Of a DNA stretch of 32,000 bases, positions 1 to 20,265 are shown piece by piece. The translations under genes and the position numbers were made by a program. The DNA is from Hyperthermus butylicus DSM 5456 (GTDB lineage Archaea > Thermoproteota > Thermoprotei_A > Sulfolobales > Pyrodictiaceae): NCBI RefSeq assembly GCF_000015145.1, contig NC_008818.1, positions 1,290,001 to 1,322,000 on the forward strand, read 5' to 3'. Within the stretch, counting starts at the first letter, position 1. Every line of letters starts with the position of its first letter. The notes below the pieces were generated by a model, which was not told the DNA's origin, made no database searches, and saw only the letters and a program-made list of their open reading frames with translations.

Positions 1-1
1 T

Positions 2-142
2 GTTAAGCGCGGCGAGAATGCAGAATGCATAATAATAATAGATTTGTCTAAGAGCACGCGAAGTATTGACGAGATAAAATCAGAGCTTTCAGCCATGGAG
101 GATGTCCATTTTGTCCAGATAAAACAGCTGCAGCATAGATAG
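2..142 (+). CDS. 3' end (46 codons plus TAG) of an unidentified upstream gene; the C-terminus reads ...AECIIIIDLSKSTRSIDEIKSELSAMEDVHFVQIKQLQHR*
   Basis: My own translation of frame 2 is open from the window edge to TAG at 140-142. The beta-alpha-beta-like pattern is reminiscent of a small regulatory (ACT-like) domain, but the fragment is too short to assign. Confidence 0.3.
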   Translation, partial: VKRGENAECIIIIDLSKSTRSIDEIKSELSAMEDVHFVQIKQLQHR

Positions 143-311
143 CGCTCAGTCGGTGGTATGGTCTTCATCGCGGCGGCTCAAGGCGGGTAGAGCTGCATCA
201 CGGCGCCCATAAGTATAGTCTAAGTATGCGGGTTTTTAGCGCTACATTACTTCTTTTACCCTAACATGTTAAGAGGGATTCCAGAGCTGAGTAATAACCC
301 TGGGGAGCTAT

Positions 312-1073
312 ATGGGGTTTAGAGCCGTCTACCCCGCAGCAACAAAGTTTAAGTATATAATCCAGACTATTGCAAAGGTTATGGATGAAATACCATTCAT
401 TGTTGCGCAAGACGGTCTAGACGTAAGAACGCTAACACCTGACAAGACGACAATGATTATACTAAGGCTTCCCGTTACAGCCTTCGAAGAGTACCAGTTA
501 GACGAGGATAAGAAGACATTCATAGTGCTAGCTGACGAGCTTAACAAGGTTGCTAAGCGTGGTACGCGAAATGATATTGTTGAGCTGAAGCTTGACGAGG
601 AGCATCGTAGACTTGAGGTTAACTTCATAGATAAAAAGACTAATGTTGTACGTAGCTTCTATGTATCTCTTCGTGAGGGTACTGTTGAAGAGCTTGCTGA
701 ACCGCAGGTGGAGCTAACGGTTACAGCGAAAATGATGGCTGACGACTTTAAGAATGTTATAAATGATGCAAAGATAGTAAGCGACGAAGTCGAGTTTGCG
801 GCGTACGAGGATAGAATAGAAGTTTATGCTGAGTCGGCTCAGAAGAAGTATATGGGTGTACTCAAGGTTGGCATGCCACTTATAACGTTAAATGTTGAAG
901 GCGGTACCCCGATACGTGCTAAGTACTCGATAGACTTGCTGAAAGCGGCTGTTAAGGCAACAACGGCTGCTAATACCGTAACACTGGAATATGGTGAGGC
1001 ATTGCCGATGAGACTAAGCTTTGACCTGCCCGGCGGCGGGCTGTTAATATACTGGATATCGCCCAGAGTCTAG
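312..1073 (+). CDS. pcn: DNA polymerase sliding clamp (PCNA homologue)
   Basis: 253 aa, the typical PCNA length. It shows the two-domain repeat pattern, and its N-terminus (FRAVYPAATKFKYIIQTIAKVMDEIPFIVAQDGLDVRTL) and C-terminal PMRLSF...GGLLIYWISPR segment are typical of crenarchaeal PCNA subunits. Confidence 0.88.
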   Translation: MGFRAVYPAATKFKYIIQTIAKVMDEIPFIVAQDGLDVRTLTPDKTTMIILRLPVTAFEEYQLDEDKKTFIVLADELNKVAKRGTRNDIVELKLDEEHRRLEVNFIDKKTNVVRSFYVSLREGTVEELAEPQVELTVTAKMMADDFKNVINDAKIVSDEVEFAAYEDRIEVYAESAQKKYMGVLKVGMPLITLNVEGGTPIRAKYSIDLLKAAVKATTAANTVTLEYGEALPMRLSFDLPGGGLLIYWISPRV

Positions 1074-1315
1074 CCTCCCTCAAGCTTTCTCAGAAGTTCC
1101 TCTAAGGCCCTCCTAGCTTCCTCAAGCTTAGGCTGGGGCTTGGCTGCAGGCTGTACATGTCTAAGCGTGGGGAACCATGCAGGCCTAGGACATATGCTCC
1201 GCTCGGGGCATGCAAGGCAACAGTATGGACATATAATTCTCTCTGGATGTAGCCAGCACTGCCTGGTTGGGCGGTGTCTTCCACAGATGCTACAGCGCTC
1301 CCAGTAAATGCTCAT
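1070..1315 (-). CDS. Small Cys-rich putative metal-binding protein with a C-terminal coiled-coil tail (hypothetical)
   Basis: The ORF is 1070-1426, but I prefer the internal ATG at 1315 (MSIYWERCSICGRH...). There are 8 Cys in about 45 aa (CSIC, CPYCC, C-x6-C), followed by KLEEARRALEELLRKLE. Its stop overlaps the PCNA stop by 4 nt, convergently. Confidence 0.45.
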   Translation of the reverse strand: MSIYWERCSICGRHRPTRQCWLHPERIICPYCCLACPERSICPRPAWFPTLRHVQPAAKPQPKLEEARRALEELLRKLEGG

Positions 1316-1529
1316 GACTGGAAGCCCAGCCTTACACTTAACAATATAGGAACGATATAAAGGGTTGAGGACTAGCCTAGATTTACGGCTGACCGATGAG
1401 AGTGCAGTAATCGCGGCGGGGCACAATACTCGAGGTAAGCCCCGTTTTGTAGGCTGCCTCGAGGGATGATGCCGTGGCCAAAAATTAAAGAGTTTAAGTC
1501 CAAGGAACTAGGAGCAACAGTTAGAATGG

Positions 1530-1922
1530 GTGACAGCTTTGGCGAAGGTTATAGTTGAAGTAGATATGGCCAAGTACAAGCACGTAGATCTCTCTGCGCA
1601 AACAGCCCTACAGCTATTGGAGAAAATAGAAGAAAGACTGGGCTATAAGACTCAAGATGTTGAGGAAGCTAAGAGATATATACGGAACTTCAAGGAATTC
1701 TATGAGTACATGCGTAAAAAGTTTAAGGATTATCTTGCGCCACCTCGCAGGCCTGACGACTATATTAGGGGTCGAGTTGTTGTGGACAAGATAAAGCTGT
1801 ACACAAGCGATAATGGCGAAGAACGTGTTGTAATAATATTTGATAGAAGAATTGATGTAGGTCTTATTGAGCAGGTACTCCGTGAGCTAGGGTTTGAGGT
1901 TGAGGTGGAACGTGCTTTTTGA
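1530..1922 (+). CDS. Hypothetical protein of 130 aa (118 aa if the start is ATG 1566)
   Basis: Long ORF with coding-like composition. An A/T-rich AAAAATTAAAG box lies at about 1481-1491 upstream. I recognise no family motif. Confidence 0.5.
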   Translation: MTALAKVIVEVDMAKYKHVDLSAQTALQLLEKIEERLGYKTQDVEEAKRYIRNFKEFYEYMRKKFKDYLAPPRRPDDYIRGRVVVDKIKLYTSDNGEERVVIIFDRRIDVGLIEQVLRELGFEVEVERAF

Positions 1923-1969
1923 GCTTCTAGTCTATGCCGAGTCATAGGTCGCTTTATCCTTCCATTGCG

Positions 1970-2236
1970 CTACTTTTTCCTTGCTCGGCGTCGCTTCTCG
2001 AGAGATGGTATTGCTATCGACTGTAGCATTGTGATGGCTTCTTCAGTTCTATATTCTCCCTTAGCGAGCTTCTCTATTATTTCCGTTCTTGCGACCATAG
2101 CTTCTAGAAGAGCGGCATTTACATCTATGTCTACAGTAACGACTTCCTCTTCAGCCTCCTCTTCAGCTGTTGTTATTGTTACTTCCCCTTCCTCTATGGG
2201 TTCTGTCACAAACTCCTCCTCCGACATAGAAGCCAC
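1970..2236 (-). CDS. Small acidic-N/basic-C helical protein; possible RNA polymerase subunit Rpo13
   Basis: 88 aa. The N-terminus is very acidic (EEEFVTEPIEEGE...AEEEAEEE), the centre is helical (LLEAMVARTEIIEKLAKGEYRTEEAITML), and the tail is basic (KRRRARKK). An AGGTGG SD lies 7 nt upstream of the ATG. The architecture matches my memory of Sulfolobus Rpo13. The antisense ORF 1965-2243 is low-complexity Ser-rich and was rejected. Confidence 0.4.
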   Translation of the reverse strand: MASMSEEEFVTEPIEEGEVTITTAEEEAEEEVVTVDIDVNAALLEAMVARTEIIEKLAKGEYRTEEAITMLQSIAIPSLEKRRRARKK

Positions 2237-2276
2237 CTTTTAAGGCATTCTTGTATTCCATATAGCCGACACACAG

Positions 2277-2291
2277 CTACAGCTGCTGTAG
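2277..2291. repeat. Perfect 15-nt palindrome CTACAGC-T-GCTGTAG in the promoter region of the 88-aa gene
   Basis: Read directly from the sequence. On the minus strand it lies immediately downstream of an AAAATATTA TATA-like box (2292-2300) and upstream of ATG 2236. Confidence 0.3.
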
Positions 2292-2305
2292 TAATATTTT
2301 CTACC

Positions 2306-4231
2306 CTAATCGCGGGTAAGATCTTCTACGTCTATCCTTACAAGAAGTGGTGTTCTAATTTCAGGATCACGTATGATAGCATAGCCTGGCTTGATTATAT
2401 GCAGTGTTAGCTCTAGAGCAGCTCGGTGTTCCTCGTTTACTTCAACTGCAAGACTTTGTGCAAGATACTTTACTACTTTGGGCTCATCATGCCTCAGTAC
2501 TATTCGAAGCAGCGTGTTTGCAAGGATCATTTCGTCTAGTTCATTGGGTTGTTGCGTGATTATGAGTAGGGCTACGCCGTATTTTCTCAATTCTGCTGCA
2601 TAGTTTCCCACTATGCTGCCAGCAACATCTCTTGATGCAAATATGTGTGCCTCATCTATCACTATTAGGAAGTCAAGCTTGTCTGATTGACCCCGCTGCT
2701 TGAAATACGTATATAGGCGTCTTAGAAGTGTATTTACTGTAAGTACTTGTTGCACTGTGGAGGGTGTCCCTGATAAATCAATTATCGTTACGTGACCTGG
2801 CCTCAGCATCTCTCGGGGGTTAATCGTTCTACCGCTAAAGAGGCTCAGTTCGAGACTGCGTATATGCATTAGCAGTCTTAGGCCACGCTCGTCGTTTCGT
2901 GCTATTCTCGCGAGAATTTGTGTTAAGTCCCTAAGTGTTGGTGGCTCCCTATTCCAGGTTGTAGGGTCTTCAAGCATGATTCCCTTAGCTTCATAGGCTA
3001 GTCTAAGTGCTTCCTCGAGGAGTTCTGCTTGTAAGGGGCCAAGCCTAAACAGCTTCCTAAATAGCTCTACGAGTTCTACAATACGCTCCGATGGGTTAAA
3101 CCCCATATGATCAAGGGGGTTTATTGATATCTTGCTTACATCGAGGTGTATTAGTGGTATTCTATCTGATAGTTTTGCTTTGTACTCGCCATGAGGATCT
3201 ATTACCACTACGGCAAGGTCATTGTGTGTTTCTATTGCAGCCATTATAATTCTTGACGCTAGTGTAGTTTTGCCCGAGCCCGTTACTCCTGTCACCAATG
3301 CATGTATAGGTCTTGAGAGTAATGGCTTGTAGGGTATCGGCTTACGTAGCCTTTCCCACCAGTAGATATAGCCAGCGCCTATATGGCCTTCGATTCTATA
3401 TTTTCTCCTTGGCAGCTTAGCTAGGTATGCTAGCGCATACCCTATAGGTTCGGCTCTTCTGGCTTCCAGTGTGCGTGCAGCCTCTAGCTCTTCCAGATTT
3501 AGTGCTGCTATTAGCGCAAGTACTGTATAAGGGGCTATAGGTGTCGTTACGCCTGCTAGTAGTACTTCTAGCGGTAGTATAGCCATCTTGTCTGTTTCGT
3601 GTGCTCCGGCGTTTGCTGAAAGGGCAATGAGCACAAGTGGGGTTACAGCCAATACTGTGGTATCGTAGAATATAGGTGTCCGTGATGTTGCGTAGATTAC
3701 TTTCAGTGTTGCATATAGTGGTAGTGTATAGGCCGTTGTAAGATATAGTACTTGGTGGGGATTCTTGCATAGGCTATCTCTCAGATTATGTTTTGACAGT
3801 TTTTCCATGAACTCATCAACATATACTCCCCTGAAGTATCTTACCCCAAAGAAGGCTAGGAGTCCAAGATTGATTAACGCTGCTGTACTAGTTAGCGCCG
3901 CGGCAAATACTACTTCAAGGGAGAGTTCGGGCTGAATTTCCCTACCTATAAGCGGTGTCACTGGGTATAGTAGTAGTTGCATGCTAAGGTCTCCTAGTGT
4001 CTCAAGGGCAAATACTATGCTACTTACGGCTAGGTATATGAGAGCTATGGCTGACACTACTGCTGAACTTGTTGTTAGCGGTACTATTACGGCTGCTACT
4101 GCGATTGGTATTTGTAAGGGATAGCCTAAGGCTAACACTAGTGCCAGTGTTATGGCTACAGCTGCTAGCGATGCTAATAACCTGGTATCCAGTACAGCTA
4201 CCCTGGCGGTAATTGGGCCGTATCGTAGCAA
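2306..4231 (-). CDS. Membrane-anchored HerA/FtsK-superfamily (DUF87-like) P-loop ATPase
   Basis: 641 aa. The N-terminal ~250 aa is strongly hydrophobic with multiple predicted TM helices. Walker A is GVTGSGKTT (3266-3289, minus) and Walker B is FLIVIDEAHIF. The HerA-like segment ALLIITQQPNELDEMILANTLLRIVLR is present. The start is TTG at 4231 and is uncertain. Confidence 0.8.
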   Translation of the reverse strand: MLRYGPITARVAVLDTRLLASLAAVAITLALVLALGYPLQIPIAVAAVIVPLTTSSAVVSAIALIYLAVSSIVFALETLGDLSMQLLLYPVTPLIGREIQPELSLEVVFAAALTSTAALINLGLLAFFGVRYFRGVYVDEFMEKLSKHNLRDSLCKNPHQVLYLTTAYTLPLYATLKVIYATSRTPIFYDTTVLAVTPLVLIALSANAGAHETDKMAILPLEVLLAGVTTPIAPYTVLALIAALNLEELEAARTLEARRAEPIGYALAYLAKLPRRKYRIEGHIGAGYIYWWERLRKPIPYKPLLSRPIHALVTGVTGSGKTTLASRIIMAAIETHNDLAVVVIDPHGEYKAKLSDRIPLIHLDVSKISINPLDHMGFNPSERIVELVELFRKLFRLGPLQAELLEEALRLAYEAKGIMLEDPTTWNREPPTLRDLTQILARIARNDERGLRLLMHIRSLELSLFSGRTINPREMLRPGHVTIIDLSGTPSTVQQVLTVNTLLRRLYTYFKQRGQSDKLDFLIVIDEAHIFASRDVAGSIVGNYAAELRKYGVALLIITQQPNELDEMILANTLLRIVLRHDEPKVVKYLAQSLAVEVNEEHRAALELTLHIIKPGYAIIRDPEIRTPLLVRIDVEDLTRD

Positions 4232-4256
4232 GGATAGCTAAACCTCGTGCGAGGCT

Positions 4257-7133
4257 GTGGAGGGCTTGCCCAGGGGTTTTGGCCAGACCAGTGTACAGGG
4301 CGCGTTTAGGCTACTGCACCCCGTGCTTAGAGCGGTACTCCCTAGGTACGGGTATATAAGGCCGACAGAGATCCAGGAGAAGGCTATACCGCTCATACTT
4401 CGTGGGAACCATGTACTTATTGTTGCTCCTACAGGTAGTGGTAAGACTGAGGCTGCACTCCTCCCTGCTATGAGTTCCATCCTGCCTATGCGCGGGTTTA
4501 CCGGGAAGATATATGTGGTTTACATTACGCCTCTCCGTAGCTTAAACCGTGACATCTTTGCGAGAATGAAATCGCTCGCTTCAAGTGTTGGACTTAGGCT
4601 TGAAGTACGGCATGGTGATAGTACGGAGCTCGAGAAGAGGAGATTTCTCGAGAATCCGCCGCACATAATGATTACTACGCCTGAATCATTCTATTTCCTG
4701 CTTAGCGTTGAGAAGTTTAGGGAGGCGATAAGCGAGCTTAAGTACGTTATAGTTGATGAGGTACACGAACTCGTTGGGGACAAGAGAGGTGCTGAGCTGA
4801 GCCTAGCGCTTGAACGTGCTATATCACTCTATGTTAAGGGTAAGGTACAACTTGTAGGGCTTTCTGCAACTGTTGCCGAGCCTGAGCTTGTTGTCCGTAA
4901 ACTCTTTGGCTCTAGGTATGTTCGCATTGTTGAGGCTAGTATGGCAAGAAAGTATAATGTAGGAGTGGTTTTGCCTAGCAGGGACAATACTGTTAATGGA
5001 CTCGAACTCTCGGAGTTTAACGAAGAGCTTTACGAGGATACAATTGATCGTATTGCGTATATAGCGAATGTTATACGTGAGAAAGGATCGGTCATAGTAT
5101 TCACTAATACGCGTGACACGGCTGAGCTTATAGGCGCTCTCCTAAAGAAGGTTCTAGGCGAGAATAGTATTGAAGTGCATCATGGGAGCCTTAGCAGGGA
5201 ACACAGACTGTCCATAGAGGAAAGGTTTCGCAAAGGCGAGATAGCGGCTCTAGTTGCTACTTCTAGTCTCGAACTAGGCATAGACATCGGTCATGTTGGC
5301 TATGTTGTACAATACCTATCACCTAGGCAGGTTGTTAAACTCGTTCAGCGTGTTGGCCGTGCGCGTCATCGCGCTGGGGAGGCTGCGGCGGGTGTTGTTG
5401 TAGCTTCGCGTAATCTTTTCGACGTATTAGAGTCTGCAGTTATAGCTGCCAGAACTAGTAGAGGTAACCTTGAAAAGCTTAAGCCTCCGCATGCGCCGCT
5501 TGATGCCCTTGTGCACCAGGTTGCTGGTACCGTCATAGAAAACCCTGGTATAGACATCGGCAAGCTATACCTTCTAGTGACGAGGAGCGGATTCTATGAG
5601 GGCCTAGATTTTGACGAGTTTATGGCAGTACTCTCCTACATGGAGCATGCTGGGATAATCCGCATACGTGACGGCAAGCTCTATCCGGGGAGAAAGTGTA
5701 TGAGCTATTACTTCAACTCAACAATGATAACGGAAAGCATTCAGTATCCAGTATATGATGTGGTTAGCGGTAAGAGGATAGGACTACTTGATGAAGAGTT
5801 TGTGGCTTCGCTCGATGTTGGCGAGAAGTTTGTGCTCGCAGGAAGAGTTTGGGAGGTTGTAGGCTTTGACGAAAACGGGGTTCGTGTTAAGCCTTCTAGC
5901 GAGGATAGACTCATACCCCCCGCATGGGAGGGCGATCTCATACCTGTAGAGCATAACGTTGCTAGAGAGGTTGCTAGTATTCTCCGTAGATTCGGAGAGG
6001 GGCACACGGAAGTTCTGGACATGTACCCTCTTAGCGATACGGCACGCCGCTACGTTGGTGAAAAGCTCCTACAGGCTATGCGTGAACTAGGATTTCTACC
6101 GCACGATAGAAGGATACTTGTAGAACACTATGGTGATACTTATGTTGTCTATGTTTTCCTTGGCAGTAGGGGTAACAAGTCGTTAGAATACCTCCTAGCC
6201 TACTACATATCGCAAATTAAGGGTTACAACGTATTATCGGCAAGTACACCTTACGCGATTGTGCTTAAGCTTCCAGAACGCAGTGAACCAGGACTCGTAG
6301 AGATGGTTATCAAGAGGCTAGCAGAGCTACCGCCCAGCACATTAGAGGAAATGTATGTTGAAGCCGTAAAGAAGAGCAGGCTATACAGCTGGATACTATA
6401 CCGTGTAGCTCAGCGTGCTGGTGCTCTCCCTGCATCAAGGAGGGCACGTGACCCCTCAATGCTAAAGAGGGTCGTAGCTCAACTCGCCAACACGATACTT
6501 GGTGTTGAAGCCCTAAGAGAATTCGAGAATAGGAAAGGCAATCTAGAAGTTGTCAAGGCTCTGCTTCGAGATGTCGGGAAGGGTTATGTTCTAATAAGCA
6601 CCGTGTCAAGGCGTAATCCTTCACCGTTGACGGAAGACATTATCTCCGAGGCACTTTTTAGCGATAGGGTTGTAAGAACCCAGATGCCAGCAACACTTGT
6701 TGCAGAAGCCGTTAAGAGGCGTATCAAAGCGAGACAGGTTATACTCATATGTCTGGTCTGTGGCTACAAGTGGCAGCGTAGGGTATCCGAGCTGCCTCAA
6801 GAGATAAAGTGTCCAAATTGTTCATCAAAACTAGTCTACGTTACAACCGTTGAGGAAAAAGCTAGAGATGCCAGCATGCTAGCTATGAAGCGTAAACGTG
6901 TTGGACTATCGCGAAGCGAGAATAAGAGGATGCGCGAGTACATCGAGGTTGCAAATCTAGTAATGGACTATGGCAGGTATGCTGTAGAGGCGTTGGTTGC
7001 TCGTGGTGTAGGTGTTTCAACGGCGAGGCGTGTATTGCAAAAACTTGTATTTAGCGAGGATGCCTTCTATAAGGCTCTTGTAGAGGCTGAAGCAAAGTAT
7101 TACAAGTATGCGTATAAGCTTAGGAAGAAATAG
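4257..7133 (+). CDS. lhr: Lhr-type ATP-dependent DExH-box helicase (superfamily 2) with a C-terminal zinc ribbon
   Basis: 958 aa. Q-motif and motif I read PTEIQEKAIP...VAPTGSGKTEA (Walker A at 4425-4448). Motif II is DEVHE (4755-4766), followed by SAT, then TSSLELGIDIG and QRVGRARH. The C-terminus carries CLVCGYKW...CPNCSS. The GTG start is only 25 nt from the divergent ATPase start, so one or both starts may be internal. Confidence 0.85.
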   Translation: MEGLPRGFGQTSVQGAFRLLHPVLRAVLPRYGYIRPTEIQEKAIPLILRGNHVLIVAPTGSGKTEAALLPAMSSILPMRGFTGKIYVVYITPLRSLNRDIFARMKSLASSVGLRLEVRHGDSTELEKRRFLENPPHIMITTPESFYFLLSVEKFREAISELKYVIVDEVHELVGDKRGAELSLALERAISLYVKGKVQLVGLSATVAEPELVVRKLFGSRYVRIVEASMARKYNVGVVLPSRDNTVNGLELSEFNEELYEDTIDRIAYIANVIREKGSVIVFTNTRDTAELIGALLKKVLGENSIEVHHGSLSREHRLSIEERFRKGEIAALVATSSLELGIDIGHVGYVVQYLSPRQVVKLVQRVGRARHRAGEAAAGVVVASRNLFDVLESAVIAARTSRGNLEKLKPPHAPLDALVHQVAGTVIENPGIDIGKLYLLVTRSGFYEGLDFDEFMAVLSYMEHAGIIRIRDGKLYPGRKCMSYYFNSTMITESIQYPVYDVVSGKRIGLLDEEFVASLDVGEKFVLAGRVWEVVGFDENGVRVKPSSEDRLIPPAWEGDLIPVEHNVAREVASILRRFGEGHTEVLDMYPLSDTARRYVGEKLLQAMRELGFLPHDRRILVEHYGDTYVVYVFLGSRGNKSLEYLLAYYISQIKGYNVLSASTPYAIVLKLPERSEPGLVEMVIKRLAELPPSTLEEMYVEAVKKSRLYSWILYRVAQRAGALPASRRARDPSMLKRVVAQLANTILGVEALREFENRKGNLEVVKALLRDVGKGYVLISTVSRRNPSPLTEDIISEALFSDRVVRTQMPATLVAEAVKRRIKARQVILICLVCGYKWQRRVSELPQEIKCPNCSSKLVYVTTVEEKARDASMLAMKRKRVGLSRSENKRMREYIEVANLVMDYGRYAVEALVARGVGVSTARRVLQKLVFSEDAFYKALVEAEAKYYKYAYKLRKK

Positions 7134-7203
7134 GCGAGTGTTAGTTTCAGCTATGTCTGTGGCGGTTAGGCGTTTAGATGGCTCGGGAATAGTAGGGTAA
7201 GGA

Positions 7204-7467
7204 ATGGCGGACATAACGGAATTCATAAACATGTTGACCATTAGGATAGTGAGCATTGCTTGGGGCTTGTTCCTCCTAGCATGGAGTATCGGCTGGCTAC
7301 TCAAGGGCGCACCGATCCCGTTTGCACGGCTCAAACGGACAGGACAAGACCTCGTAGAGGATGCAGTATGGGCTGCCTTTTGGCTTGCTGTGGGCTCCTC
7401 AATATTTGCACTAATATCCTACGTAGTTAGCAATGTCGCTCCAAACCCTACCGTTCCACAGCCCTAG
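7204..7467 (+). CDS. Small 2-TM membrane protein (CedA1-like position)
   Basis: 87 aa with two hydrophobic helices (~aa 12-33 and 55-76). It is the first gene of a tightly packed four-gene operon. It shares the motif P-[IL]-P-x2-RLK[RK]-x4-L-[VI]-[EQ]-D-[AS]-[VI]-WAA with the N-terminus of the next gene. Confidence 0.55.
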   Translation: MADITEFINMLTIRIVSIAWGLFLLAWSIGWLLKGAPIPFARLKRTGQDLVEDAVWAAFWLAVGSSIFALISYVVSNVAPNPTVPQP

Positions 7468-7476
7468 CCATGGTGG

Positions 7477-8925
7477 TTGATGATGACAGAGCCCAGTCTG
7501 ACAATGTTAGAGCCCATAGAGTTTCTAGCTATAGCTTCTCAGCTCGCAGTCCTAACTTACTATCTTGGCGTATTAATATATGCTCTGCCACTGCCAATCT
7601 ATAGGCTGAAAAAGTGGGCACCAATACTTATACAAGACTCGATATGGGCTGCCATATTAATATTCACGTACTCGTTACTACTAAGCTTCTCAGATAGCCT
7701 GGCAGGCTATAGCGGTATTAGTCTAGAATCCCTCGTGGCCTACATGCAGCTCGTAATCGCAATAGTTATGTCAGTAAACTTTATAGCAAGAGCTTTTATT
7801 ACTTCACTCTCAATGCTACCTGTTAGCCTACACCACGTAGCGAGCGTCATCCTCCTACCAATCCACATGTTCCAATACGGGATAATCCTATCCTCAACCA
7901 TGGTAATGATATTGGCTCTAATCCTTATTGGTGCCAAGGCTAAGCTTGCAGCACTAGGGATAACACTTATAGCAATGCCCTTCAGAATCGGTAGAAATGC
8001 AGGAGCATCAATACTCGCATTCGTACTAGTAGCCAATGTTATGCTGCCATTTCTACCTTATTGGATTGGTCTTATACTATCTAGTATTGGTCTAGCATAT
8101 GATGATATAGCAACTTACAATTCTACGATGTATGTAAACATGTGGGGCACCATATCGGACCAGTATGGGGGCTATCCAGCTGGCGGCGTTATACTATTCA
8201 TGAAGCCCGATGACCCTGATACAAGGTATTGGTTTAAAGTGCATAACGATGGAACATACTACATAAATAGACCATTCAAATACATAAGGGCTGGAGACTA
8301 TATAGTCTACATGGAGTATCTTGGGTACCTAGTTCACCTAATTCCAACCTACGTCAAGTTGCCTGATAACGCCTCTCTAACTTATAGGCTTTCAACCGCA
8401 GAGTATGAGCTACATTTTCGTGCAGCCGAGAACTATGTATTTTTACGTCCTCACGGTGTGTTAATACCAGCATCATGCAAAATTGATGGCTTCGAGAGAT
8501 ACGTTAATGGTGTAAAGCTGGTATGTTTGCCCACGAATAGCATTTTACAGTTATATCTTGCCTATCCAGAGCAGTGTAGTGTAGACCTAGAGTCTAATGC
8601 AAGTATGACGCTTACATCTGTAGAGTTAGTACCTTGGTATGGAATTCTGGTGGTTAAGAAAGAGTATAGAGCTAGTGTAGACGAGTCTACAAGGCTCGAA
8701 ATCAAAGCTAATGTGGTTTGTAGAGGTGCTGTACCAGAACTTCAGGTTGAAGAAGGGGTAGCAGAGCCCAAGAAAAGTGCACTTGTAGAGCTTTTGACGC
8801 TAATAACGTTCTTTATAGCATATCCTGTTGCTGTATTCTCGTATTTAACAGTCATGTCGATGGTTACGCTTGCAGTTGCAAGACTATTGGGTGCACTTTC
8901 ACCAAGGATTATATTTGATTACTAA
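7477..8925 (+). CDS. Polytopic membrane protein with a beta-rich extracytoplasmic domain and a C-terminal TM anchor (CedA-like position)
   Basis: 482 aa. About 6 hydrophobic helices lie in aa 15-215. A soluble region (~aa 215-440) carries N-x-S/T sequons (NST, NAS, NAS), and a hydrophobic C-terminal anchor follows. ATG codons at 7480 and 7483 follow the TTG, with a GGTGG SD just upstream. Confidence 0.55.
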   Translation: MMMTEPSLTMLEPIEFLAIASQLAVLTYYLGVLIYALPLPIYRLKKWAPILIQDSIWAAILIFTYSLLLSFSDSLAGYSGISLESLVAYMQLVIAIVMSVNFIARAFITSLSMLPVSLHHVASVILLPIHMFQYGIILSSTMVMILALILIGAKAKLAALGITLIAMPFRIGRNAGASILAFVLVANVMLPFLPYWIGLILSSIGLAYDDIATYNSTMYVNMWGTISDQYGGYPAGGVILFMKPDDPDTRYWFKVHNDGTYYINRPFKYIRAGDYIVYMEYLGYLVHLIPTYVKLPDNASLTYRLSTAEYELHFRAAENYVFLRPHGVLIPASCKIDGFERYVNGVKLVCLPTNSILQLYLAYPEQCSVDLESNASMTLTSVELVPWYGILVVKKEYRASVDESTRLEIKANVVCRGAVPELQVEEGVAEPKKSALVELLTLITFFIAYPVAVFSYLTVMSMVTLAVARLLGALSPRIIFDY

Positions 8926-8930
8926 GGTTA

Positions 8931-9119
8931 ATGGTGATGCGTATGCGTATTGAGCTAAAACTCGATATCAAGACATCAACAATAATAGCCTTCGTTATTG
9001 CTATTTACGGGTTTATAGTTGGTATACTTTCCGACAATACTGTCCTCCAAGCAATATCTACTGTCAATGCCATAATGCTTGCGTTACTCCTTATAAGAAT
9101 TGTAAGAGGTGAAGTCTAG
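8931..9119 (+). CDS. Small 2-TM membrane protein (CedA2-like position)
   Basis: 62 aa (58 aa if the start is ATG 8943, which is preceded by GGTGAT). It has two hydrophobic helices. Its stop TAG (9117-9119) directly abuts the ATG of the downstream ATPase. Confidence 0.45.
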   Translation: MVMRMRIELKLDIKTSTIIAFVIAIYGFIVGILSDNTVLQAISTVNAIMLALLLIRIVRGEV

Positions 9120-10460
9120 ATGGATCCGGTCTCGCTCATCGTAGTTGCTGCTGGGGCTACAGCTATACTAGTAAACATGCTCAACAGCCGAGGCCTCATA
9201 TCATTGGGAGTGGGATTTACGAGAAAACTATCCATGCACAACAATAGTCATTGCGTGGGTAGCAGATCCGAGTGCCTGGTTGGTATAGCTGTTACTGGAA
9301 CCGAGTGCATAATGTCTATCTTTATGCGCGGTGTCTTGGAGAAGGTGATGTCTCTAGAGAATATTTGTGGTGTGATAGTCCTTGGCCGCAAAGTAGATTA
9401 TAATGCTGCTACCAGGTTACTAGAATCAAAGCTAATAATGTACCAGGTTGAGCTTGAGAGAAATCCAGCCAATACACGTGCAAAGAGAATGCTTGAGCTC
9501 CTAGAAGCTATTAGATCTGAAATAAACAAGTATAGGGATCCGGTGAACCTGCAACTCGTATTCCTCGTCTGCAAGTCGCATAGTGGTGCAGAGATAGCAG
9601 CTGTGCTTAAGCCACTAAAGTCAATGTTACAGCCATATCGCTGCAAAATATCCCTAACCAGCATATCACTTGGGGGAAATTTTCCAAGACGTGGAGGGAC
9701 AGTATTATCTGGCAGTAAGGCTCTGAGGGAACTTGGCAGAGTAGCCTTACCACTTAGTATTTTAGAGTTTGCACGTGAATCGCAGCTATCAATACCTATA
9801 GGTGTTGACCTACTTGCAGGTGGCTTCCCAATATTTCTCCCAATCCACGACGAGTATGGCGCTAGACACACGCTCGTAGTGGGTCCATCTGGTCGAGGCA
9901 AGACATATCTACTTGGAAGAATTGTAGCACTAGTACTAGCGTTGCTTCCGCATCGCGTAGTGGTGGTTGACCCGAAGGGAGACCTAGCTGGCCTCATAGA
10001 CTCTTTTTGTGGTTGCAGTGAAGTGGTAGAGGTCATTGATGATAGCGATGAAGAATACTTGTCAAGAATAGTACATGACAAAGTCAGAGAGCTACTTGAG
10101 CGCAGTCGTTACGCGGTGCTGGTTGTTGATGAAGCTTGGAGACTCGCTGGATCCCATGCACTAAACGTAGCTCTTCGCGAGGGTAGAAGCAGGGGGTTAG
10201 CAGTTATCATGGCTTCGCAGCAGCCTGGAGACTTTACGACAACACACTGGGCAAATACTAGCAATGTAATAGTATTTGGTTCAAAGGATAGAAGCTATAT
10301 CAGCCTAGTAGCGAGGTACAGCGGTATAGAGCCTAGGTCGCTAGAACACCTTACACACCTAGATATCGGCGAGGCATTGATAAGGTATAGCAATACGAGT
10401 ATCGCAATACCCTTCCGGGTTCTTGAACCACCACTGATAACAGTTAAGAGGCCTCCCTAG
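9120..10460 (+). CDS. VirB4/HerA-like P-loop ATPase with an N-terminal TM helix (CedB-like)
   Basis: 446 aa with a hydrophobic N-terminus (LIVVAAGATAILV). Walker A is GPSGRGKT (9882-9905). Walker B is LVVDEAWRL, the DEAW signature typical of VirB4/TrbE-type ATPases, followed by GLAVIMASQQPGDF. It is translationally coupled to the preceding membrane genes. Confidence 0.65.
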   Translation: MDPVSLIVVAAGATAILVNMLNSRGLISLGVGFTRKLSMHNNSHCVGSRSECLVGIAVTGTECIMSIFMRGVLEKVMSLENICGVIVLGRKVDYNAATRLLESKLIMYQVELERNPANTRAKRMLELLEAIRSEINKYRDPVNLQLVFLVCKSHSGAEIAAVLKPLKSMLQPYRCKISLTSISLGGNFPRRGGTVLSGSKALRELGRVALPLSILEFARESQLSIPIGVDLLAGGFPIFLPIHDEYGARHTLVVGPSGRGKTYLLGRIVALVLALLPHRVVVVDPKGDLAGLIDSFCGCSEVVEVIDDSDEEYLSRIVHDKVRELLERSRYAVLVVDEAWRLAGSHALNVALREGRSRGLAVIMASQQPGDFTTTHWANTSNVIVFGSKDRSYISLVARYSGIEPRSLEHLTHLDIGEALIRYSNTSIAIPFRVLEPPLITVKRPP

Positions 10461-10494: not shown

Positions 10495-11211
10495 ATGGGT
10501 AAGCGGCTAATAGTACAGCGTAGAGGTAAGGGCTCTCCACTATACAGAAGCCGGCCATGGCTGCACCCGGCCCCAGCAAGGTATCCGCCACTAACACCTG
10601 TAACGCTACGCGGCAGAGTCGTAGAACTAGTCCACGACCCTGGTAGATGGGTTCCACTAGCACATATAGTGCTAGAAAACGGGGATGAATTCTACATCCC
10701 AGCAGCTGAGGGCATGTATGTTGGCCAGATAATAGAGATAGGTCCTGATGCCAGGCCGGTGAATGGTAACATACTACCGGTAGGCAAGATACCGGAGGGT
10801 ACCCAGGTATATAATATTGAAATAAGGCCTGGTGATGGCGGAAAGCTCGTCAGAGCCTATGGCACCTACGCAATAATCCTTGGGCGCAGCGGAAACAAGA
10901 CGATAATACAACTGCCAAGCGGTAAGGTAAAGGAAGTACCAAACGATGCAAGAGCGACAATAGGCATAGTGGCAGGTGCAGGTAGGCTCGAAAAGCCGCT
11001 GCTCAAGGCTGGTGCAGCTTACTACAAGTGGAGTGCCAAGCCACACGTGTGGCCACGCGTACGCGGCGTAGCAATGAACGCTGTCAACCACCCACACGGT
11101 GGTGGCAGCCACCAGAGCCCAAGCTTCCCAACAACGGTATCCCGTAATGCGCCACCAGGCCGCAAGGTAGGCCACATAGCAGCACGCTCAACGGGCAGGA
11201 GGAAGAGGTAA
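10495..11211 (+). CDS. rpl2p: 50S ribosomal protein uL2 (L2P)
   Basis: 238 aa starting [15 protein letters not shown], with the conserved ...[14 protein letters not shown]... motif. An AGGTGG SD lies upstream. Confidence 0.97.
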
Positions 11212-11257
11212 TAATCGTATATTAGCACCCAGCATAGAGGGGGATGGAGGGGGTTCG

Positions 11258-11725
11258 ATGGTCCAGACACAGCTAAGGCTCGATGAGGAAATGAAGAAGT
11301 GGCTTGAAACACTGCCACCAGAGTGGAAGAAGTTCCGCTACCGTGGCTACACGCTAGAAGAACTACTGGCAATGCCCATGGATCAGTTCATAAAGCTCCT
11401 ACCAGCAAGGCAGCGCCGCAGCTTGCTAAGAGGTCTAACAGACGCGCAGCGCCGCCTCCTCTGGAAGATTAGGAAGGCAAGGCAGAAGATGCTCCAGGGC
11501 AAGAAGGTTGTAGTGAAGACGCATGTCAGGGACATGATTATACTTCCAGAAATGGTTGGTCTTACAATAGCCGTCTACAATGGCAAAGAGTTCATACCAG
11601 TAAAGATAACCCCAGAAATGATAGGCCACTATCTAGGCGAGTTCAGTCCAACATGCAAGCAGGTACAGCACGGCGAGCCAGGCCTAAAGGCTACAAGGAG
11701 CACGCTGCACGTAGCCCTCAAGTAG
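11258..11725 (+). CDS. rps19p: 30S ribosomal protein uS19 (S19P)
   Basis: 155 aa containing ...[32 protein letters not shown]..., characteristic of S19. It directly follows uL2, as in the canonical order. Confidence 0.95.
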
Positions 11726-12447: not shown

Positions 12448-12942
12448 TCATCGCAGGGAAGGATTATTCCCGTGCTGACACCTCTCCACTGCGGGCACAA
12501 GATACTTCTTAACCATAGACTTAACAAGCTCGTATACTTTGGGCGAGAACTCTATCACAATACGCTCACCGTTACGTAACACAAGCTCTAGCTTAGCGGG
12601 CTCAACCTCCTGACCTCCCGGACGCCTTTCAGCTCTCTTCGCAATGCTTCGCCTTGGCGAGGGCTTAGAAATGTTATAGCTTTTTATGTCGCAGTATCTT
12701 ATCACAATATCATAGGGCTCTGAAGCTTCGCCTACGCGTCGGCGCTTCTTCCTCAACGAGTATATGAACATGTCTACGCGTTGCTGAAGCCCCGTTCTTG
12801 GCCTCATACGCTCCCAAAACTCTCCAAGATAGACTAGCCTTAACTCGTCATCCTCAAACAGCATGTCGTAGTGTATTCTGTCAGGACCGCGTCTAACCCA
12901 GACACTGTACACAATTCTGTCCTCGCTAGGAGAAGACACCAT
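12448..12942 (-). CDS. Hypothetical protein (164 aa)
   Basis: Long ORF convergent with the methyltransferase. It is rich in charged residues with a basic central segment (KKRRRV, RRSIAKRAERRPGG). No family recognised. Confidence 0.5.
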   Translation of the reverse strand: MVSSPSEDRIVYSVWVRRGPDRIHYDMLFEDDELRLVYLGEFWERMRPRTGLQQRVDMFIYSLRKKRRRVGEASEPYDIVIRYCDIKSYNISKPSPRRSIAKRAERRPGGQEVEPAKLELVLRNGERIVIEFSPKVYELVKSMVKKYLVPAVERCQHGNNPSLR

Positions 12943-13085: not shown

Positions 13086-14087
13086 GTGGAAAGGGATGTT
13101 GAGAAGGAGTTACTCTACAGGCTGGGGCTCGGCGAGAGTAGCGGGAGGGAGTCTTCTGCTGTTGATATTGAGGGGAAGGTCAGGCAGATCTATGGCCAGC
13201 TGGTAGCAGAGTATAGTGGCAAGCCTGTTCGAAACCCCTATGAGATACAGAGGCTTCTCCGCGATCGCTACAAGCTGCTCGTGAGCGAGAACTTGGTAAA
13301 GCTTGTTGTAGCAGCATTTCTAGCAGGGAGGCCGGTCCTTTTCGAAGGGCCCCCAGGTACTGGTAAGACGGAGATAGCTGAAGCCATACTAACACTGTGG
13401 GCGGGAAAACAAGCATTCATAATAACGTGTAGCGAGAACTACGACGAGTATAGGGTTATAGGAGACTTCCACCCACTCATGGCACTAAGATATGGATTTA
13501 ACGAGGCGAGTTTTATTCCAAGACCCTTGCTTGCAGCCCTAATACTTGATGCTGGTGTTCTAGTAGACGAGATAAGACGTAGTAGCGAGGAGCTTCAGAA
13601 CCTCCTACTAGACATCATTGATAAGCGGCGTATAATAGTGCCGGAGATACGTAGAGTGTTTAGGGCTAGAGGTATCGGGTTCCAGATGATATTTACCAGC
13701 AACCCCGAGGACTTTGCTCAGAATGAGCTGAGCGATGCCTTCCTAAGGCGTGTTGTAAGAATACCGTTTAGATACCCATCACCCGAGGAGGAGGCGGAAA
13801 TAGTGAGGCTGAGATATGACGTAGAAGTGGAACTCGAACCAAGCTTACTCAAGGCCATGATAATGACCGTAAACATTCTACGCGAAAAGGCAGCCTATAA
13901 GCCAGGTCCCTCGGATACTGTTCTCTGGGCAAGAATTGCTGGTAGGCTCGCAAAGCTACGTGGTGCGAATAAGGTAGAGATGCGGGACGTTGTTGAGGCA
14001 GCAGTAATAACGTTGTATAAGCGTGTAGGGGAGGAGGACATAGTTGATGAAGCACTCGAAAAAGTTTTTGGGCAAAAACCAGGGTGA
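13086..14087 (+). CDS. MoxR/CoxD-like AAA+ ATPase
   Basis: 333 aa. Walker A is GPPGTGKT (13347-13370), Walker B is VLVDEIRRS (MoxR DEINR-like), and sensor-1 is FTSNP. GTG start with an upstream GAGGT SD. Confidence 0.85.
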   Translation: MERDVEKELLYRLGLGESSGRESSAVDIEGKVRQIYGQLVAEYSGKPVRNPYEIQRLLRDRYKLLVSENLVKLVVAAFLAGRPVLFEGPPGTGKTEIAEAILTLWAGKQAFIITCSENYDEYRVIGDFHPLMALRYGFNEASFIPRPLLAALILDAGVLVDEIRRSSEELQNLLLDIIDKRRIIVPEIRRVFRARGIGFQMIFTSNPEDFAQNELSDAFLRRVVRIPFRYPSPEEEAEIVRLRYDVEVELEPSLLKAMIMTVNILREKAAYKPGPSDTVLWARIAGRLAKLRGANKVEMRDVVEAAVITLYKRVGEEDIVDEALEKVFGQKPG

Positions 14088-16056
14088 AGAAGCTGACTAC
14101 AAAGCACTGTCTCTCGCTGTAGCGGAGGCTGCACGCCGGGCAGGTGTACGAGTCTCAACCTCCGAGGTTGTCGACGCAGCTAGGCTGCTAGCACTCTACG
14201 CTGCCATCTCGTCGAAGCCTCTATCACTCGAAGACTATGTAGCAGTATTCACATCAGTGTATGCTAAGAGAGGTGAAGACGAGCAGGTAGTTGTAGAGGC
14301 CGTAAAGAGGGTAATTATCGGTCCTGAGGCTGGGAGAGCTAGTGTAGAGCAGCGGATCAAAAGGGATCTTGAAGCTCTAGGGCTAGATTACGGTGATAAA
14401 ATATCAAGACACAAGCTTTCAAGTCTAAAGAAAAGCGATAGGGCGCGCACGGCTTATGCAAGGCTAAAACTCCTAGGGATAATAAGGCGTAGTCGCCATG
14501 GCGAGTATGTTGTCTCGCAGGAGAAGGCCAAGAGGATAATGGGTGAGATAGCCAGGCGATACGGAGATATAGATAATGCGCTCGCAGAAGCTATAGCAAA
14601 CAGTATAGCTAGAAACACGAGTCTCGCCAGCCTTCTGGGGTCAGAGCTACTCAAATACCTCGACCTTGAGAGTCTGAATCTCGCGACATTAGCGAAGCTA
14701 TACAGTAATCTACACAGGGAGAAGTGGCTGCAGAAGGTAATAACGGGCATAATTAGCCGGAAAATTGCTGAGGGAGAAACACCGCCAAACCCTGAGAGGA
14801 TATACGACATCTTAAGACGTGAAGGTATGGATAGTCGTGTTCTAGCAGGTTTGCTTCGTAGTAATCCACGCCTTGCAGCTAGAGCTGCAAAAGACTATGG
14901 CTTCCAGACAGTCCTAGATATAGCGTCGTCGATTGCTAGCTACGACTCCCAGAGAGCAGCAGAAATACTTGCACATGCTAGCGGGCTTAAGCAGAGCCAG
15001 AAAACATTCCTACGCAACTACATCACGAGGCTTGGAGTAACCTATGCGCTCGAGCTTGCAAAGCATACTGGTGTAGCTCAGCTTCTAGCAAGAGCTGTCC
15101 AGGTAAGGGAGAGTTTGATTCGAAGCCTCTCAAGGCCCGAGGAAGCCCCAGCTCATCTTGACATGGCTCTTGCAGAGTACGAAAAGCTAGTATCTGAATA
15201 CAATTCCGCAAGCAGCGAGATACCAGACCGTCTACGCAATATTATAGAGGGGGAGATTAGGAGCCTTGCTAGCCTAGTACATGCTGCAAGCACAGGCAAC
15301 ACATATGCTCTTCTTAAGGGGTTAACGCGGCAGCTACCAGTTTGGCAGGCCCTACAATTCCTAACAGATGTTGCTTCAGCAAGTAGTGACCCGAAAACAA
15401 AGAGGTATGCGTTAATGCTAGCTCTACTAACGTGGAAGAGGGCAGTATCGACGACGGGACCAAGGCTCTCTAGGAGGCGGAAATATACGGTTACCCGTGG
15501 AAGACTCGATGCTAGAAAGGCTATCTACGGGATACTCCGCTTTGACCCCTACACTCCAATATACCGTAGGAGGGTTAGGACAGCACGCTACGTCGTGGTA
15601 CTAGACAAGAGTGGTAGCATGCGTGAATATTCACTAACAGCGCTATTAGCCTCAGCTTCTCTCGCGCCAGCCATAACAAGGCTAGTCCTCTTCGACAGTG
15701 AGGTAAGGGTAATCGATAGGCTTGAACAAGCATCTGTCCCGAAAATAATATCCCTGCTCTTTAAGACAAGCTTTGAAGGCTATACAGACGTCGTGCGCGC
15801 TCTCGAAGAGTCAACCCGTGGGCTGGCACCCTCAAAACTGGTGGTGATAAGCGACTTGCATCAAACGGTGCCATCCAGAAAATCTGTTGACGAGGTACTC
15901 CGAGGTATGAGAACGTCTGGATGGCGTATAGCGGTAGTAGCTCCGCCAACGTTGGATCCGCGGTTGGCAAGGAGGATAACTGGTATTGTAAAATTATACA
16001 CGGTGTCAAAACCAGCTGATGTAGCTCGTGTTATAAGGAGGCTAATAGCTGCTTAG
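14047..16056 (+). CDS. CoxE-like von Willebrand factor A (VWA) domain protein with a ~500-aa helical N-terminal extension
   Basis: The C-terminal VWA domain has a MIDAS motif in VVVLDKSGSM (DKSGS at 15604-15618), preceded by the Arg-rich CoxE-like segment RRRKYTVTRGRLDARKAIY. The gene overlaps the MoxR gene by 41-44 nt (ATG 14047 or TTG 14044), which suggests coupling. Confidence 0.8.
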   Translation: MKHSKKFLGKNQGEEADYKALSLAVAEAARRAGVRVSTSEVVDAARLLALYAAISSKPLSLEDYVAVFTSVYAKRGEDEQVVVEAVKRVIIGPEAGRASVEQRIKRDLEALGLDYGDKISRHKLSSLKKSDRARTAYARLKLLGIIRRSRHGEYVVSQEKAKRIMGEIARRYGDIDNALAEAIANSIARNTSLASLLGSELLKYLDLESLNLATLAKLYSNLHREKWLQKVITGIISRKIAEGETPPNPERIYDILRREGMDSRVLAGLLRSNPRLAARAAKDYGFQTVLDIASSIASYDSQRAAEILAHASGLKQSQKTFLRNYITRLGVTYALELAKHTGVAQLLARAVQVRESLIRSLSRPEEAPAHLDMALAEYEKLVSEYNSASSEIPDRLRNIIEGEIRSLASLVHAASTGNTYALLKGLTRQLPVWQALQFLTDVASASSDPKTKRYALMLALLTWKRAVSTTGPRLSRRRKYTVTRGRLDARKAIYGILRFDPYTPIYRRRVRTARYVVVLDKSGSMREYSLTALLASASLAPAITRLVLFDSEVRVIDRLEQASVPKIISLLFKTSFEGYTDVVRALEESTRGLAPSKLVVISDLHQTVPSRKSVDEVLRGMRTSGWRIAVVAPPTLDPRLARRITGIVKLYTVSKPADVARVIRRLIAA

Positions 16057-16956: not shown

Positions 16957-17014
16957 GTGATGAGGGGTGCAAACGCCTAGCCCGCAGCGGCTGTGACGAG
17001 TTGAACCCGGCTGA
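16957..17014 (+). ncRNA. Weak candidate C/D-box sRNA
   Basis: C box GTGATGA (16957-16963), C'-like GTGACGA (16993-16999), an 11-nt spacer, then D box CTGA (17011-17014). The total of ~58 nt matches archaeal C/D sRNA size. The D' position (CCTA) is non-canonical and there is no clear terminal stem. Confidence 0.2.
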
Positions 17015-17368
17015 GGGCCTCAGTAGAAGGGGTATTTCAGCACGTAGCCCCGCTTCAGCACTCGGCAAACACATCACTGGCCATATAGACACATGAGCTG
17101 TGGACGGATTTATTAGGCATACTCGCTCTGCCTCCGTCTAGTGGAGGTGCTCAAGGCATGGGTGGTAGGCAGCGCACAAGCTTGTTCATGACACGTGAGG
17201 AAAGCAAGGCAAGCAAGCAGGCTCGGAGAAAGGGCAAGACGAAGTAGCAACTACAGCATAGTGGTAGTTTTTAAGCTTCTAGCTATCCGGATTCTGTGTT
17301 TCTCATCTTTCTGGTGTACAACGGGTAGCCTGACAGCCTCTCCGTCCTCTCTGTGGGGTGTAGTGAGG

Positions 17369-18211
17369 ATGTCGTGGCAGCCGCCTCCACGCAAAGTGAA
17401 GCTAGTAGCGGCTGTACCAGCCTCATACACTTCCACCGAGGGTGATCTACGCCATAAGACCATCAAGGTTGGCCTCCTCGGTAGACTCTTTGCAGTCTAC
17501 CGTGTCGACGAGGCAATCGTGTATATTGATAGGCCTGCATACTGGCGTGATGCAGAACTTATGAGAAAGATACTGGAGTACATGGTTACTGCGCCATATC
17601 TCCGAAAGAAGATCTATCCACCAAACGTGCCCGAGTTACGCTACGCTAGCCTTCTTCCACCACTTCAGCTTCCAACGCATGGTGTTGGAGGTCCGGTGGA
17701 TGGAGAGGTGCGTCAAGCGCTGGTTCTAAGGGCTTCTGGTGGACGAGCACTTGTTGAGGCTGGGTTAGAGGAGCCCGTATGGGTTAGAGGCAGGTTTCAT
17801 CGTGGCCAGCGTATACTGGTGCGTATAGTGTCCGTCGAACGTGGTATCGTAGAGCCGGTCGAGGATGAATTAGTTTACAATGGGTTCAAGGTAACTATAG
17901 TTGAAGGATTGTCGCGACTCCTATCAAAGTATCGGAATTATACACGTATAGCGACTAGTAGAAAGGGCAGGCTTGTAGACGCTGAGCTGCTCTCCCAGAT
18001 AGGATCCAGGTCCTCCAGTGGGCCTGGAGTACTGGTGCTCTTTGGTGCACCGGACCTGGGTCTCTACGAGCTGGCTGAGCTTGAGAACCTAAAACTGGAG
18101 GATCTTGTGGACTATGTGGTTAACACTATCCCACAACAGGGCACCAAGACTGTTCGGGTTGAGGAGGCTGTGGCAGCTACGCTGGCGTTGCTAAACCTTG
18201 TGCTCAGCTAG
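17369..18211 (+). CDS. DUF171/SPOUT-family putative RNA methyltransferase
   Basis: The ORF opens at 17195, but its first 58 codons look non-coding (Cys/Ser/Trp-rich). I prefer ATG 17369 (MSWQPPPRKVKLVAAVPAS...), which is preceded by GTGAGG. The 281-aa length and the C-terminal VLFGAPDLGL ... VNTIPQQGTKTVRVEEAV segment resemble the trefoil-knot SAM-binding region of this family. Confidence 0.6.
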   Translation: MSWQPPPRKVKLVAAVPASYTSTEGDLRHKTIKVGLLGRLFAVYRVDEAIVYIDRPAYWRDAELMRKILEYMVTAPYLRKKIYPPNVPELRYASLLPPLQLPTHGVGGPVDGEVRQALVLRASGGRALVEAGLEEPVWVRGRFHRGQRILVRIVSVERGIVEPVEDELVYNGFKVTIVEGLSRLLSKYRNYTRIATSRKGRLVDAELLSQIGSRSSSGPGVLVLFGAPDLGLYELAELENLKLEDLVDYVVNTIPQQGTKTVRVEEAVAATLALLNLVLS

Positions 18212-18310
18212 GCACGTAGCTCCTATGGGAGGCTTAGGGATAAAAAGCGCTGGTTAGCTGTGTGCAGCGATTCGGGTAGGGTTGCTAGGAAGGATAGGCG
18301 GTGATGCATA

Positions 18311-20235: not shown

Positions 20236-20265
20236 CACTCTTAGCCGGTAGAGGGGTGACGAAGT

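Follow-up and report, generated by a model that had tools for sequence, protein, structure and literature searches.

The stretch of Hyperthermus butylicus DSM 5456 analysed here (32,000 nucleotides (nt); the window) carries four open reading frames (ORFs) on its forward strand at 7204–10460, separated by spacers of 9, 5 and 0 nt. The encoded proteins are 87, 482, 62 and 446 amino acids (aa) long, and two of them were 100% identical to deposited records of this strain. An earlier note, made from the letters of the sequence, had described the same co-directional genes with these sizes and spacers, and the ORF listing agreed with it exactly. Kyte-Doolittle hydropathy scans of all four proteins likewise reproduced the topologies given there: two hydrophobic helices in the 87-aa protein, a polytopic 482-aa protein, two hydrophobic segments in the 62-aa protein, and a hydrophobic helix at the N-terminus of the 446-aa ATPase. 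The cluster is very probably the Ced locus (for crenarchaeal exchange of DNA) on the H. butylicus chromosome, orthologous to the Aeropyrum pernix locus whose pilus structure has been solved. The Ced machinery had been proposed in the earlier note, and this identity was upheld: three of the four proteins are homologous to Ced components, with CedA1, CedA and CedB as their best family matches, and related genomes keep the gene order. The three conditions that the note had named as refuting it were all resolved in favour of Ced.

The operon opens with the gene for the component that the earlier note had missed when it saw no pilin nearby. The 87-aa protein scored 127.7 bits against the NCBIfam equivalog model NF041797 (Ced_CedA1), for which the cutoff is 100. 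A phmmer search aligned its residues 2–73 (E = 1.7e-24) with PDB entry 8DFU, the cryo-electron microscopy structure of the A. pernix Ced pilus, whose VirB2-like pilin was described by Beltran et al. 2023 (PMC9905601). Over 72 aligned residues the protein was approximately 65% identical to the solved pilin, and its identity to the counterparts in related loci ranged from 48 to 70%. On these similarities the 87-aa protein is identified as CedA1, a predicted VirB2-like conjugative-type pilin.

The second gene product matched the NCBIfam model NF041796 (Ced_CedA) with E = 6.5e-36, which bore out the suspected likeness of the polytopic protein to CedA; residues 10–200 aligned with positions 1–191 of the 259-position model. 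Its hydropathy profile revealed approximately six helices in residues 16–193 and one at 436–468, with approximately 235 non-hydrophobic residues between them. The N-terminus was found to be pilin-like, as residues 14–59 could be aligned with the neighbouring CedA1 at 37% identity (BLASTP, E = 4e-8), and the CedA family profile also reached 8DFU (E = 5e-5). A relationship between the CedA N-terminus and CedA1 was reported by Beltran et al. 2023 (PMC9905601). The orientation of this segment is inferred, and it likely faces outward. An AlphaFold (AF2) model, built from a 10-sequence alignment with a mean predicted local distance difference test score (pLDDT) of 79, divided the protein into a helical membrane core, an all-beta ectodomain and a C-terminal transmembrane (TM) helix.

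Among the NCBIfam families, the 446-aa ATPase matched CedB best (E = 9.7e-21, 74 bits), followed by antiphage HerA (6e-7), VirB4 (2e-5), the double-strand-break-repair HerA (7e-4) and CedD (3e-3, 16 bits). The protein aligned along its full length with A. pernix APE_0219 and also with the Acidilobaceae CedB proteins, GPxGxGKT and DExWR being invariant among them, and the Walker A and DEAW-type Walker B motifs read earlier from the sequence were both present. When the CedB family profile was compared with the PDB, HerA-type ATPases came first (1e-9), followed by FtsK/EccC, TrwB/VirD4 (4e-6) and VirB4 (4AG5, 1.5e-3). The AlphaFold model of CedB (pLDDT 70, above 85 in the ATPase domain) was matched by Foldseek to SIR2/HerA (3.5e-13), TrwK/VirB4 (8RTB_A, R388 type IV secretion system (T4SS); 1.2e-11) and Sulfolobus solfataricus HerA (4e-11). 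The DEAW motif had been regarded as a VirB4 signature; it is invariant in the CedB family, but the PDB profile ranked HerA first and Foldseek placed HerA and VirB4/TrwK about level, and the motif does not single out VirB4. The accurate label for the protein is 'VirB4/HerA-like', as used in the literature. A HerA-NurA end-resection helicase was considered and rejected, as the HerA models were far below cutoff (helicase_HerA 18 bits against a cutoff of 970; HerA_Thermprot 11 bits) and genes for NurA, Mre11 and Rad50 were not found in the window.

The conservation of the locus was evaluated by scanning one genome per species with the CedA1 alignment (161 relatives), and 80 loci were kept and analysed with hidden Markov models from alignments built here; a single-protein CedA scan of the genome contigs gave no matches. 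The loci came from Pyrodictiaceae, Desulfurococcaceae, Acidilobaceae, Thermogladius, Caldisphaera and metagenome-assembled genomes labelled Sulfolobales. The cedA gene adjoined cedA1 in all 82 loci having a CedA, and of the 75 loci whose downstream sequence was long enough, 52 had cedA1, cedA and cedB side by side. In A. pernix, the gene of the solved pilin is followed by those of a 452-aa CedA and a 461-aa CedB (APE_0219), rpl2 and a methyltransferase gene, which is the order of the window, and the same order could be seen in three metagenomic relatives. Besides A. pernix, dozens of genomes from Pyrodictiaceae, Desulfurococcaceae and Acidilobaceae thus share the synteny, and the recurrence of the cluster far exceeds chance.

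Several results weigh against the assignment to Ced. The scores of CedA (124 bits, equivalog cutoff 330) and CedB (74 bits against a cutoff of 700) are far below the thresholds of their models. The CedA model had no significant Foldseek match in the PDB, where the link to VirB6 was not reproduced, and the PDB comparisons cannot separate CedB from HerA-type ATPases. The 62-aa protein has no detectable homologue, and the ORFs occupying its slot gave no match in the PDB profile search or in per-member Pfam scans. Further, DNA import has been demonstrated only in Sulfolobales, with no experiment on any member of the Pyrodictiaceae. The low scores of CedA and CedB, together with a CedA that exceeds the 259-position Sulfolobales model by approximately 220 residues, would also suit an uncharacterised, distinct translocon of the type IV secretion kind whose resemblance to Ced is limited to architecture. 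However, when the A. pernix orthologues were run as a control against the NCBIfam Ced models, they scored 119 bits for CedA1, 109 for CedA and 46 for CedB. Because these accepted orthologues show the same pattern, the models are evidently Sulfolobales-trained. The H. butylicus CedA1 exceeds its cutoff and closely resembles the solved A. pernix pilin, and the synteny with A. pernix extends through rpl2 and the methyltransferase gene. The earlier note had seen in the oversized CedA with its ectodomain a possible divergent variant or distinct translocon; however, all 82 CedA proteins collected outside Sulfolobaceae were 444–618 aa long, and the A. pernix protein has 452 aa. Since this length is universal among them, a long CedA is, judged by these sequences, not a mark of either. 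The distinct translocon is effectively refuted and is considered extremely improbable.

The relation of these genes to VirB2, VirB6 and VirB4 of T4SS could also mean that the locus is what remains of a conjugative plasmid or element after integration, and the G+C content of the operon region (0.41–0.46) was below that of the ribosomal cluster (0.50–0.57), with 0.41–0.49 over the stretch from the PCNA gene to cedB (window positions 1–10000) and 0.51–0.57 over the ribosomal cluster when compared within positions 17000–32000. This origin, which the earlier note had also discounted, was rejected and has a negligible probability. No integrase, relaxase or tRNA gene was found within the window, nor were the other hallmarks of such an element, a tRNA attachment site and a patchy distribution, and the locus lies between the PCNA and Lhr genes and the ribosomal protein genes, at the same place in several families; this shared chromosomal neighbourhood marks it as chromosomal and non-mobile. 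As synteny is kept across families, the low G+C content more likely reflects membrane-protein composition, for which lower values are expected, and expression level rather than recent horizontal transfer. The features of the Ced locus and its surroundings are listed in Table 1.

Table 1. Genes, domains and motifs at the H. butylicus Ced locus (nucleotide positions are those of the window; residues are those of the respective protein)
Feature	Position (nt)	Residues	Strand	Description
cedA1	7204..7467		+	87 aa, ATG start; two hydrophobic helices; predicted VirB2-like Ced pilin
cedA	7477..8925		+	482 aa, TTG start; polytopic, predicted VirB6-like membrane protein
CedA helical membrane core	7513–8109	13–211	+	AF2 model
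CedA all-beta ectodomain, two sandwich-like halves	8140–8763	222–429	+	AF2 model
CedA C-terminal TM helix	8779–8886	435–470	+	AF2 model
62-aa two-helix membrane hairpin in CedA2 position	8931..9119		+	ATG start; position and topology
cedB	9120..10460		+	446 aa, ATG start; membrane-anchored FtsK-HerA-superfamily (VirB4/HerA-like) ATPase
CedB N-terminal TM helix		3–21	+	Hydropathy scan
CedB Walker A, GPSGRGKT	9882–9905	255–262	+	
CedB Walker B, VLVVDEAW	10116–10139	333–340	+	
Likely cedD	2306..4231		-	641 aa; polytopic N-terminal membrane domain and DUF87/HerA-type ATPase; divergent, upstream of the operon
Lhr-type DEAD/DEAH helicase	4257..7133		+	958 aa; directly upstream of cedA1
rpl2 and rps19	10495..11725		+	ORF listing; directly downstream of cedB, 34-nt spacer
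PCNA	312–1073			Part of the block with the Lhr and CedD-like genes upstream of cedA1

The deposited NCBI form of CedB is 362 aa long and does not include the first 84 residues of the 446-aa ORF (nt 9120–9371), among which is the conserved N-terminal membrane helix. The helix carries a motif (MDP, a hydrophobic run, then RN or N) that is shared with the CedB proteins of Acidilobaceae and Aeropyrum, and a hydrophobic helix could be observed at the start of 36 of 55 CedB ORFs. Because of this shared motif and the frequency of helix-first ORFs, the 446-aa form starting at the ATG at 9120 is better supported than the deposited one.

The CedA ectodomain was further analysed for its distribution, sequence and probable location. 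A profile of the ectodomain, searched against 1.84 billion cluster representatives, retrieved 37 proteins, nearly all of 460–500 aa and with the domain at the same position; the few other matches were giant surface proteins with immunoglobulin-like, fn3 or PPC repeats and had weak E-values. Within that collection the domain is essentially unique to long-form CedA proteins. No Pfam family could be assigned, and profile comparison with the PDB produced only matches with E > 1, including one CarboxypepD_reg-like domain. The modelled fold is that of a generic beta-sandwich, and nothing more specific is concluded. Mean pairwise identity among CedA proteins was 18% in the ectodomain and 33% in the membrane core, indicating that the ectodomain evolves approximately twice as fast. 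Per 1000 residues, the ectodomains had 14.6 N-X-S/T sequons, the membrane parts 0 and the cytosolic proteins of the window 2.3, and the ectodomain is, on this sequence signal, probably glycosylated. An extracellular location is consistent with the six preceding helices and the pilin-like N-terminus that likely faces outward, with the sequon enrichment and with the surface-protein-like character of the matches. A description of the CedA ectodomain was not found in the Ced literature searched, which did not cover the 2016 Ced paper. As a by-product of the comparison, Ced outside Sulfolobaceae always has a CedA with this ectodomain of approximately 210 residues.

The gap between cedA and cedB showed a bimodal distribution, being 130–210 nt in Pyrodictiaceae and Desulfurococcaceae and at most 20 nt in Acidilobaceae and Aeropyrum. 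In 28 of 55 loci the long gap was filled by an ORF of 45–68 aa with two TM segments. An alignment of 24 such slot ORFs had no conserved residues, and topology was the only feature in common. The 62-aa protein is the positional and topological counterpart of CedA2, an assignment that rests only on position and topology. CedA2 is reported not to be conserved between species (PMC9905601), in agreement with the unconserved slot ORFs, and the small hairpin gene is lineage-specific. A weak match to the TraL model TIGR02762 (E = 0.087) and the place upstream of a VirB4-like gene had suggested a VirB3/TraL analogue. This candidate was dropped, as there were no conserved residues and the PDB profile and Pfam scans held no VirB3, VirB2 or TraL signal. 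On the metagenomic contig L003, a 53-aa ORF with two TM segments could be found between cedA and cedB (9480–9641) that had been missed by the gene caller; small ORFs of this kind are probably often overlooked when Ced loci are annotated.

The best NCBIfam family of the 641-aa ORF upstream of the operon was CedD (E = 2.6e-23), at 82 bits far below its cutoff of 600, followed by CedB (2e-12). The protein has a polytopic membrane domain at approximately residues 1–260 and a Pfam DUF87 match (8e-19). In 20 of 52 loci a CedD-like homologue was encoded upstream of cedA1 at a distance of no more than 7 kb, and the 641-aa protein is likely CedD, as judged from its family matches. CedD is a second, VirD4-like ATPase that is essential for import in Sulfolobales (PMC11823120), and its occurrence in Desulfurococcales and Acidilobales is also reported (PMC11823120, PMC11868833).

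The helicase directly upstream of cedA1 contains the Pfam domains DEAD, Helicase_C, WH_Lhr and DEAD_assoc. An Lhr gene adjoined cedA1 in 12 of 62 loci and lay within 3.5 kb in 5 more. The block of Lhr, CedD-like and PCNA genes directly upstream of cedA1 is conserved in Pyrodictiaceae and looser in Desulfurococcaceae and Thermogladius. The linkage of Lhr and CedD to cedA1 could be functional or merely a gene order inherited by related genomes. In the papers searched, Lhr was not mentioned together with CedA and CedB.

On the downstream side, the L2 gene immediately followed cedB in 28 of 51 loci, and rpl2 overlapped cedB in contig L003 and in a further locus, L004. The main ribosomal protein cluster of the window (18311–21435) has the order L3-L4-L23-L22-S3, with no L2-S19 between L23 (20266–20532) and L22 (20887–21435). 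The rpl2-rps19 pair is relocated to directly after cedB, approximately 9 kb upstream of its canonical place. It may be co-transcribed with the Ced operon, which would place a DNA-import ATPase gene and essential ribosomal protein genes on one transcript. The tie between cedB, rpl2 and rps19 may explain why A. pernix Ced pili are made without ultraviolet (UV) induction. A scan with bacterial sigma-70 promoter and terminator models gave fewer sites than shuffled controls; the models are bacterial and thus uninformative for an archaeon.

Further downstream of the methyltransferase gene, an overlapping gene pair encoding a MoxR-type AAA_5 ATPase and a VWA/CoxE protein (13086–16056) was observed. 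The pair is also found at the same place in L003 and has no evident link to Ced. Three ORFs of 118–164 aa, at 1530–1922 (+), 1070–1426 (-) and 12448–12942 (-), had no Pfam or NCBIfam match, and counterparts of similar size occur at equivalent positions in L003 and L004.

While the homologies, the domain layout and the synteny come from the present sequences, Sulfolobus genetics and the A. pernix structure suggest how the H. butylicus Ced system would work. Pilus formation, DNA import and the direction in which DNA moves are carried over from them, as are the tasks given to the ectodomain, the small protein, CedD and Lhr. CedA1 would be inserted in the membrane as a helical hairpin; after extraction it would polymerise with lipids to form a hollow pilus of the conjugative type. 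CedA, whose N-terminus is itself a pilin-like hairpin, may be the VirB6-like platform or channel in the membrane where the pilus has its base, with the beta-sandwich of approximately 210 residues in its last outward-facing loop predicted to project outside the cell. The 62-aa hairpin may act as an accessory membrane subunit. CedB, tethered by its N-terminal helix, would probably form a hexamer in which ATP drives assembly and/or DNA translocation, while the CedD-like upstream ATPase would probably be its VirD4-like coupling or translocating partner. DNA from a partner cell would then be imported and used for recombinational repair.

A more far-reaching proposal concerns the ectodomain, which is present in all long-form CedA proteins of Ups-less Crenarchaeota and absent from the 259-position model. 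The domain might span the surface layer (S-layer) and provide partner-cell recognition or pilus docking, in place of the Ups pili that serve species recognition in Sulfolobales, with the upstream CedD-like ATPase and Lhr as parts of the same machine and Lhr handling the incoming strand. This proposal is regarded as speculative and rather unlikely.

A different use of a true Ced orthologue and its pilus was also weighed, namely that in Pyrodictiaceae it serves mainly for adhesion or cell-cell contact, or for DNA export instead of import. Members of this family are without Ups pili and live in cannula-linked networks. Function and directionality are known only from Sulfolobales, the ectodomain is fast-evolving and resembles surface beta-sandwiches, and the tight cedB-rpl2 linkage points to expression also outside conditions of DNA damage. 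In Saccharolobus islandicus, CedA1 and CedE are reported to contribute to export as well (PMC11868833). However, counterparts of all core import components of Sulfolobus (CedA, CedA1, CedB and a CedD-like protein) are present, and the neighbouring Lhr and PCNA genes are DNA-handling genes. An adhesion or export role is judged improbable, and DNA import by Ced is preferred.

The locus is an already known system, ordinary for this archaeal group, rather than a new variant; the presence of Ced in Desulfurococcales was recognised when the system was discovered, and the current picture of it is unchanged by these findings. Homologues of CedA1 have been reported in all Pyrodictiaceae, including Hyperthermus (10.1101/2024.12.30.630787), and neither H. 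butylicus nor its relatives are genetically tractable (PMC9905601). The deposited records describe the proteins as 'hypothetical' or 'conserved crenarchaeal protein', and they can be relabelled cedA1-cedA-(cedA2-like)-cedB with a probable cedD upstream.

Compared with known systems, the Ced locus of A. pernix K1 (CedA1 APE_0220a, 87 aa, PDB 8DFU) has the same order of cedA1, a long cedA, cedB, rpl2 and the methyltransferase gene, and the same CedB N-terminal anchor helix. The proteins differ in size (CedA, 452 vs 482 aa; CedB, 461 vs 446 aa), and the CedA ectodomains of the two species are only approximately 12% identical. In A. pernix, unlike in H. butylicus, only 20 nt separate cedA from cedB, with no small ORF in the gap, and the locus examined lacks an Lhr or CedD-like gene immediately upstream.

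With the Ced systems of S. acidocaldarius and Sa. islandicus (CedA, CedA1, CedA2, CedB, CedD), the H. butylicus locus shares the component set, with the 62-aa hairpin in the place of CedA2, and the membrane topologies; CedA1 passes the equivalog threshold, and the best families of the others are CedA, CedB and CedD. In contrast, the 259-position Sulfolobales CedA model has no counterpart of the H. butylicus ectodomain, and the CedB model spans 590 positions, whereas the H. butylicus CedB has 446 aa. In S. acidocaldarius cedB is not known to be linked to cedA, while in H. butylicus both belong to one operon. Induction by DNA damage, UV or TFB3 regulation and dependence on Ups pili are features of Ced in Sulfolobales; Desulfurococcales lack Ups (PMC9905601).

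Bacterial T4SS such as that of R388 (TrwL/TrwI/TrwK) share the hairpin pilin, the polytopic platform and the membrane-associated FtsK-HerA ATPase, and the CedB model matched TrwK/VirB4 in 8RTB and 7O41 with Foldseek E-values of approximately 1e-10 to 1e-11. The Ced locus differs in being chromosomal and 'domesticated', without a relaxase or a VirB7-10 outer complex, and according to the literature Ced imports DNA whereas bacterial T4SS export. The Ted system of Thermoproteales (TedC, TedA, TedB, TedD) is an analogous domesticated conjugation-like importer with DNA-repair neighbours, whose components have no recognisable sequence similarity to those of Ced (PMC9905601). Unlike Ted, the H. butylicus proteins match the Ced models directly.

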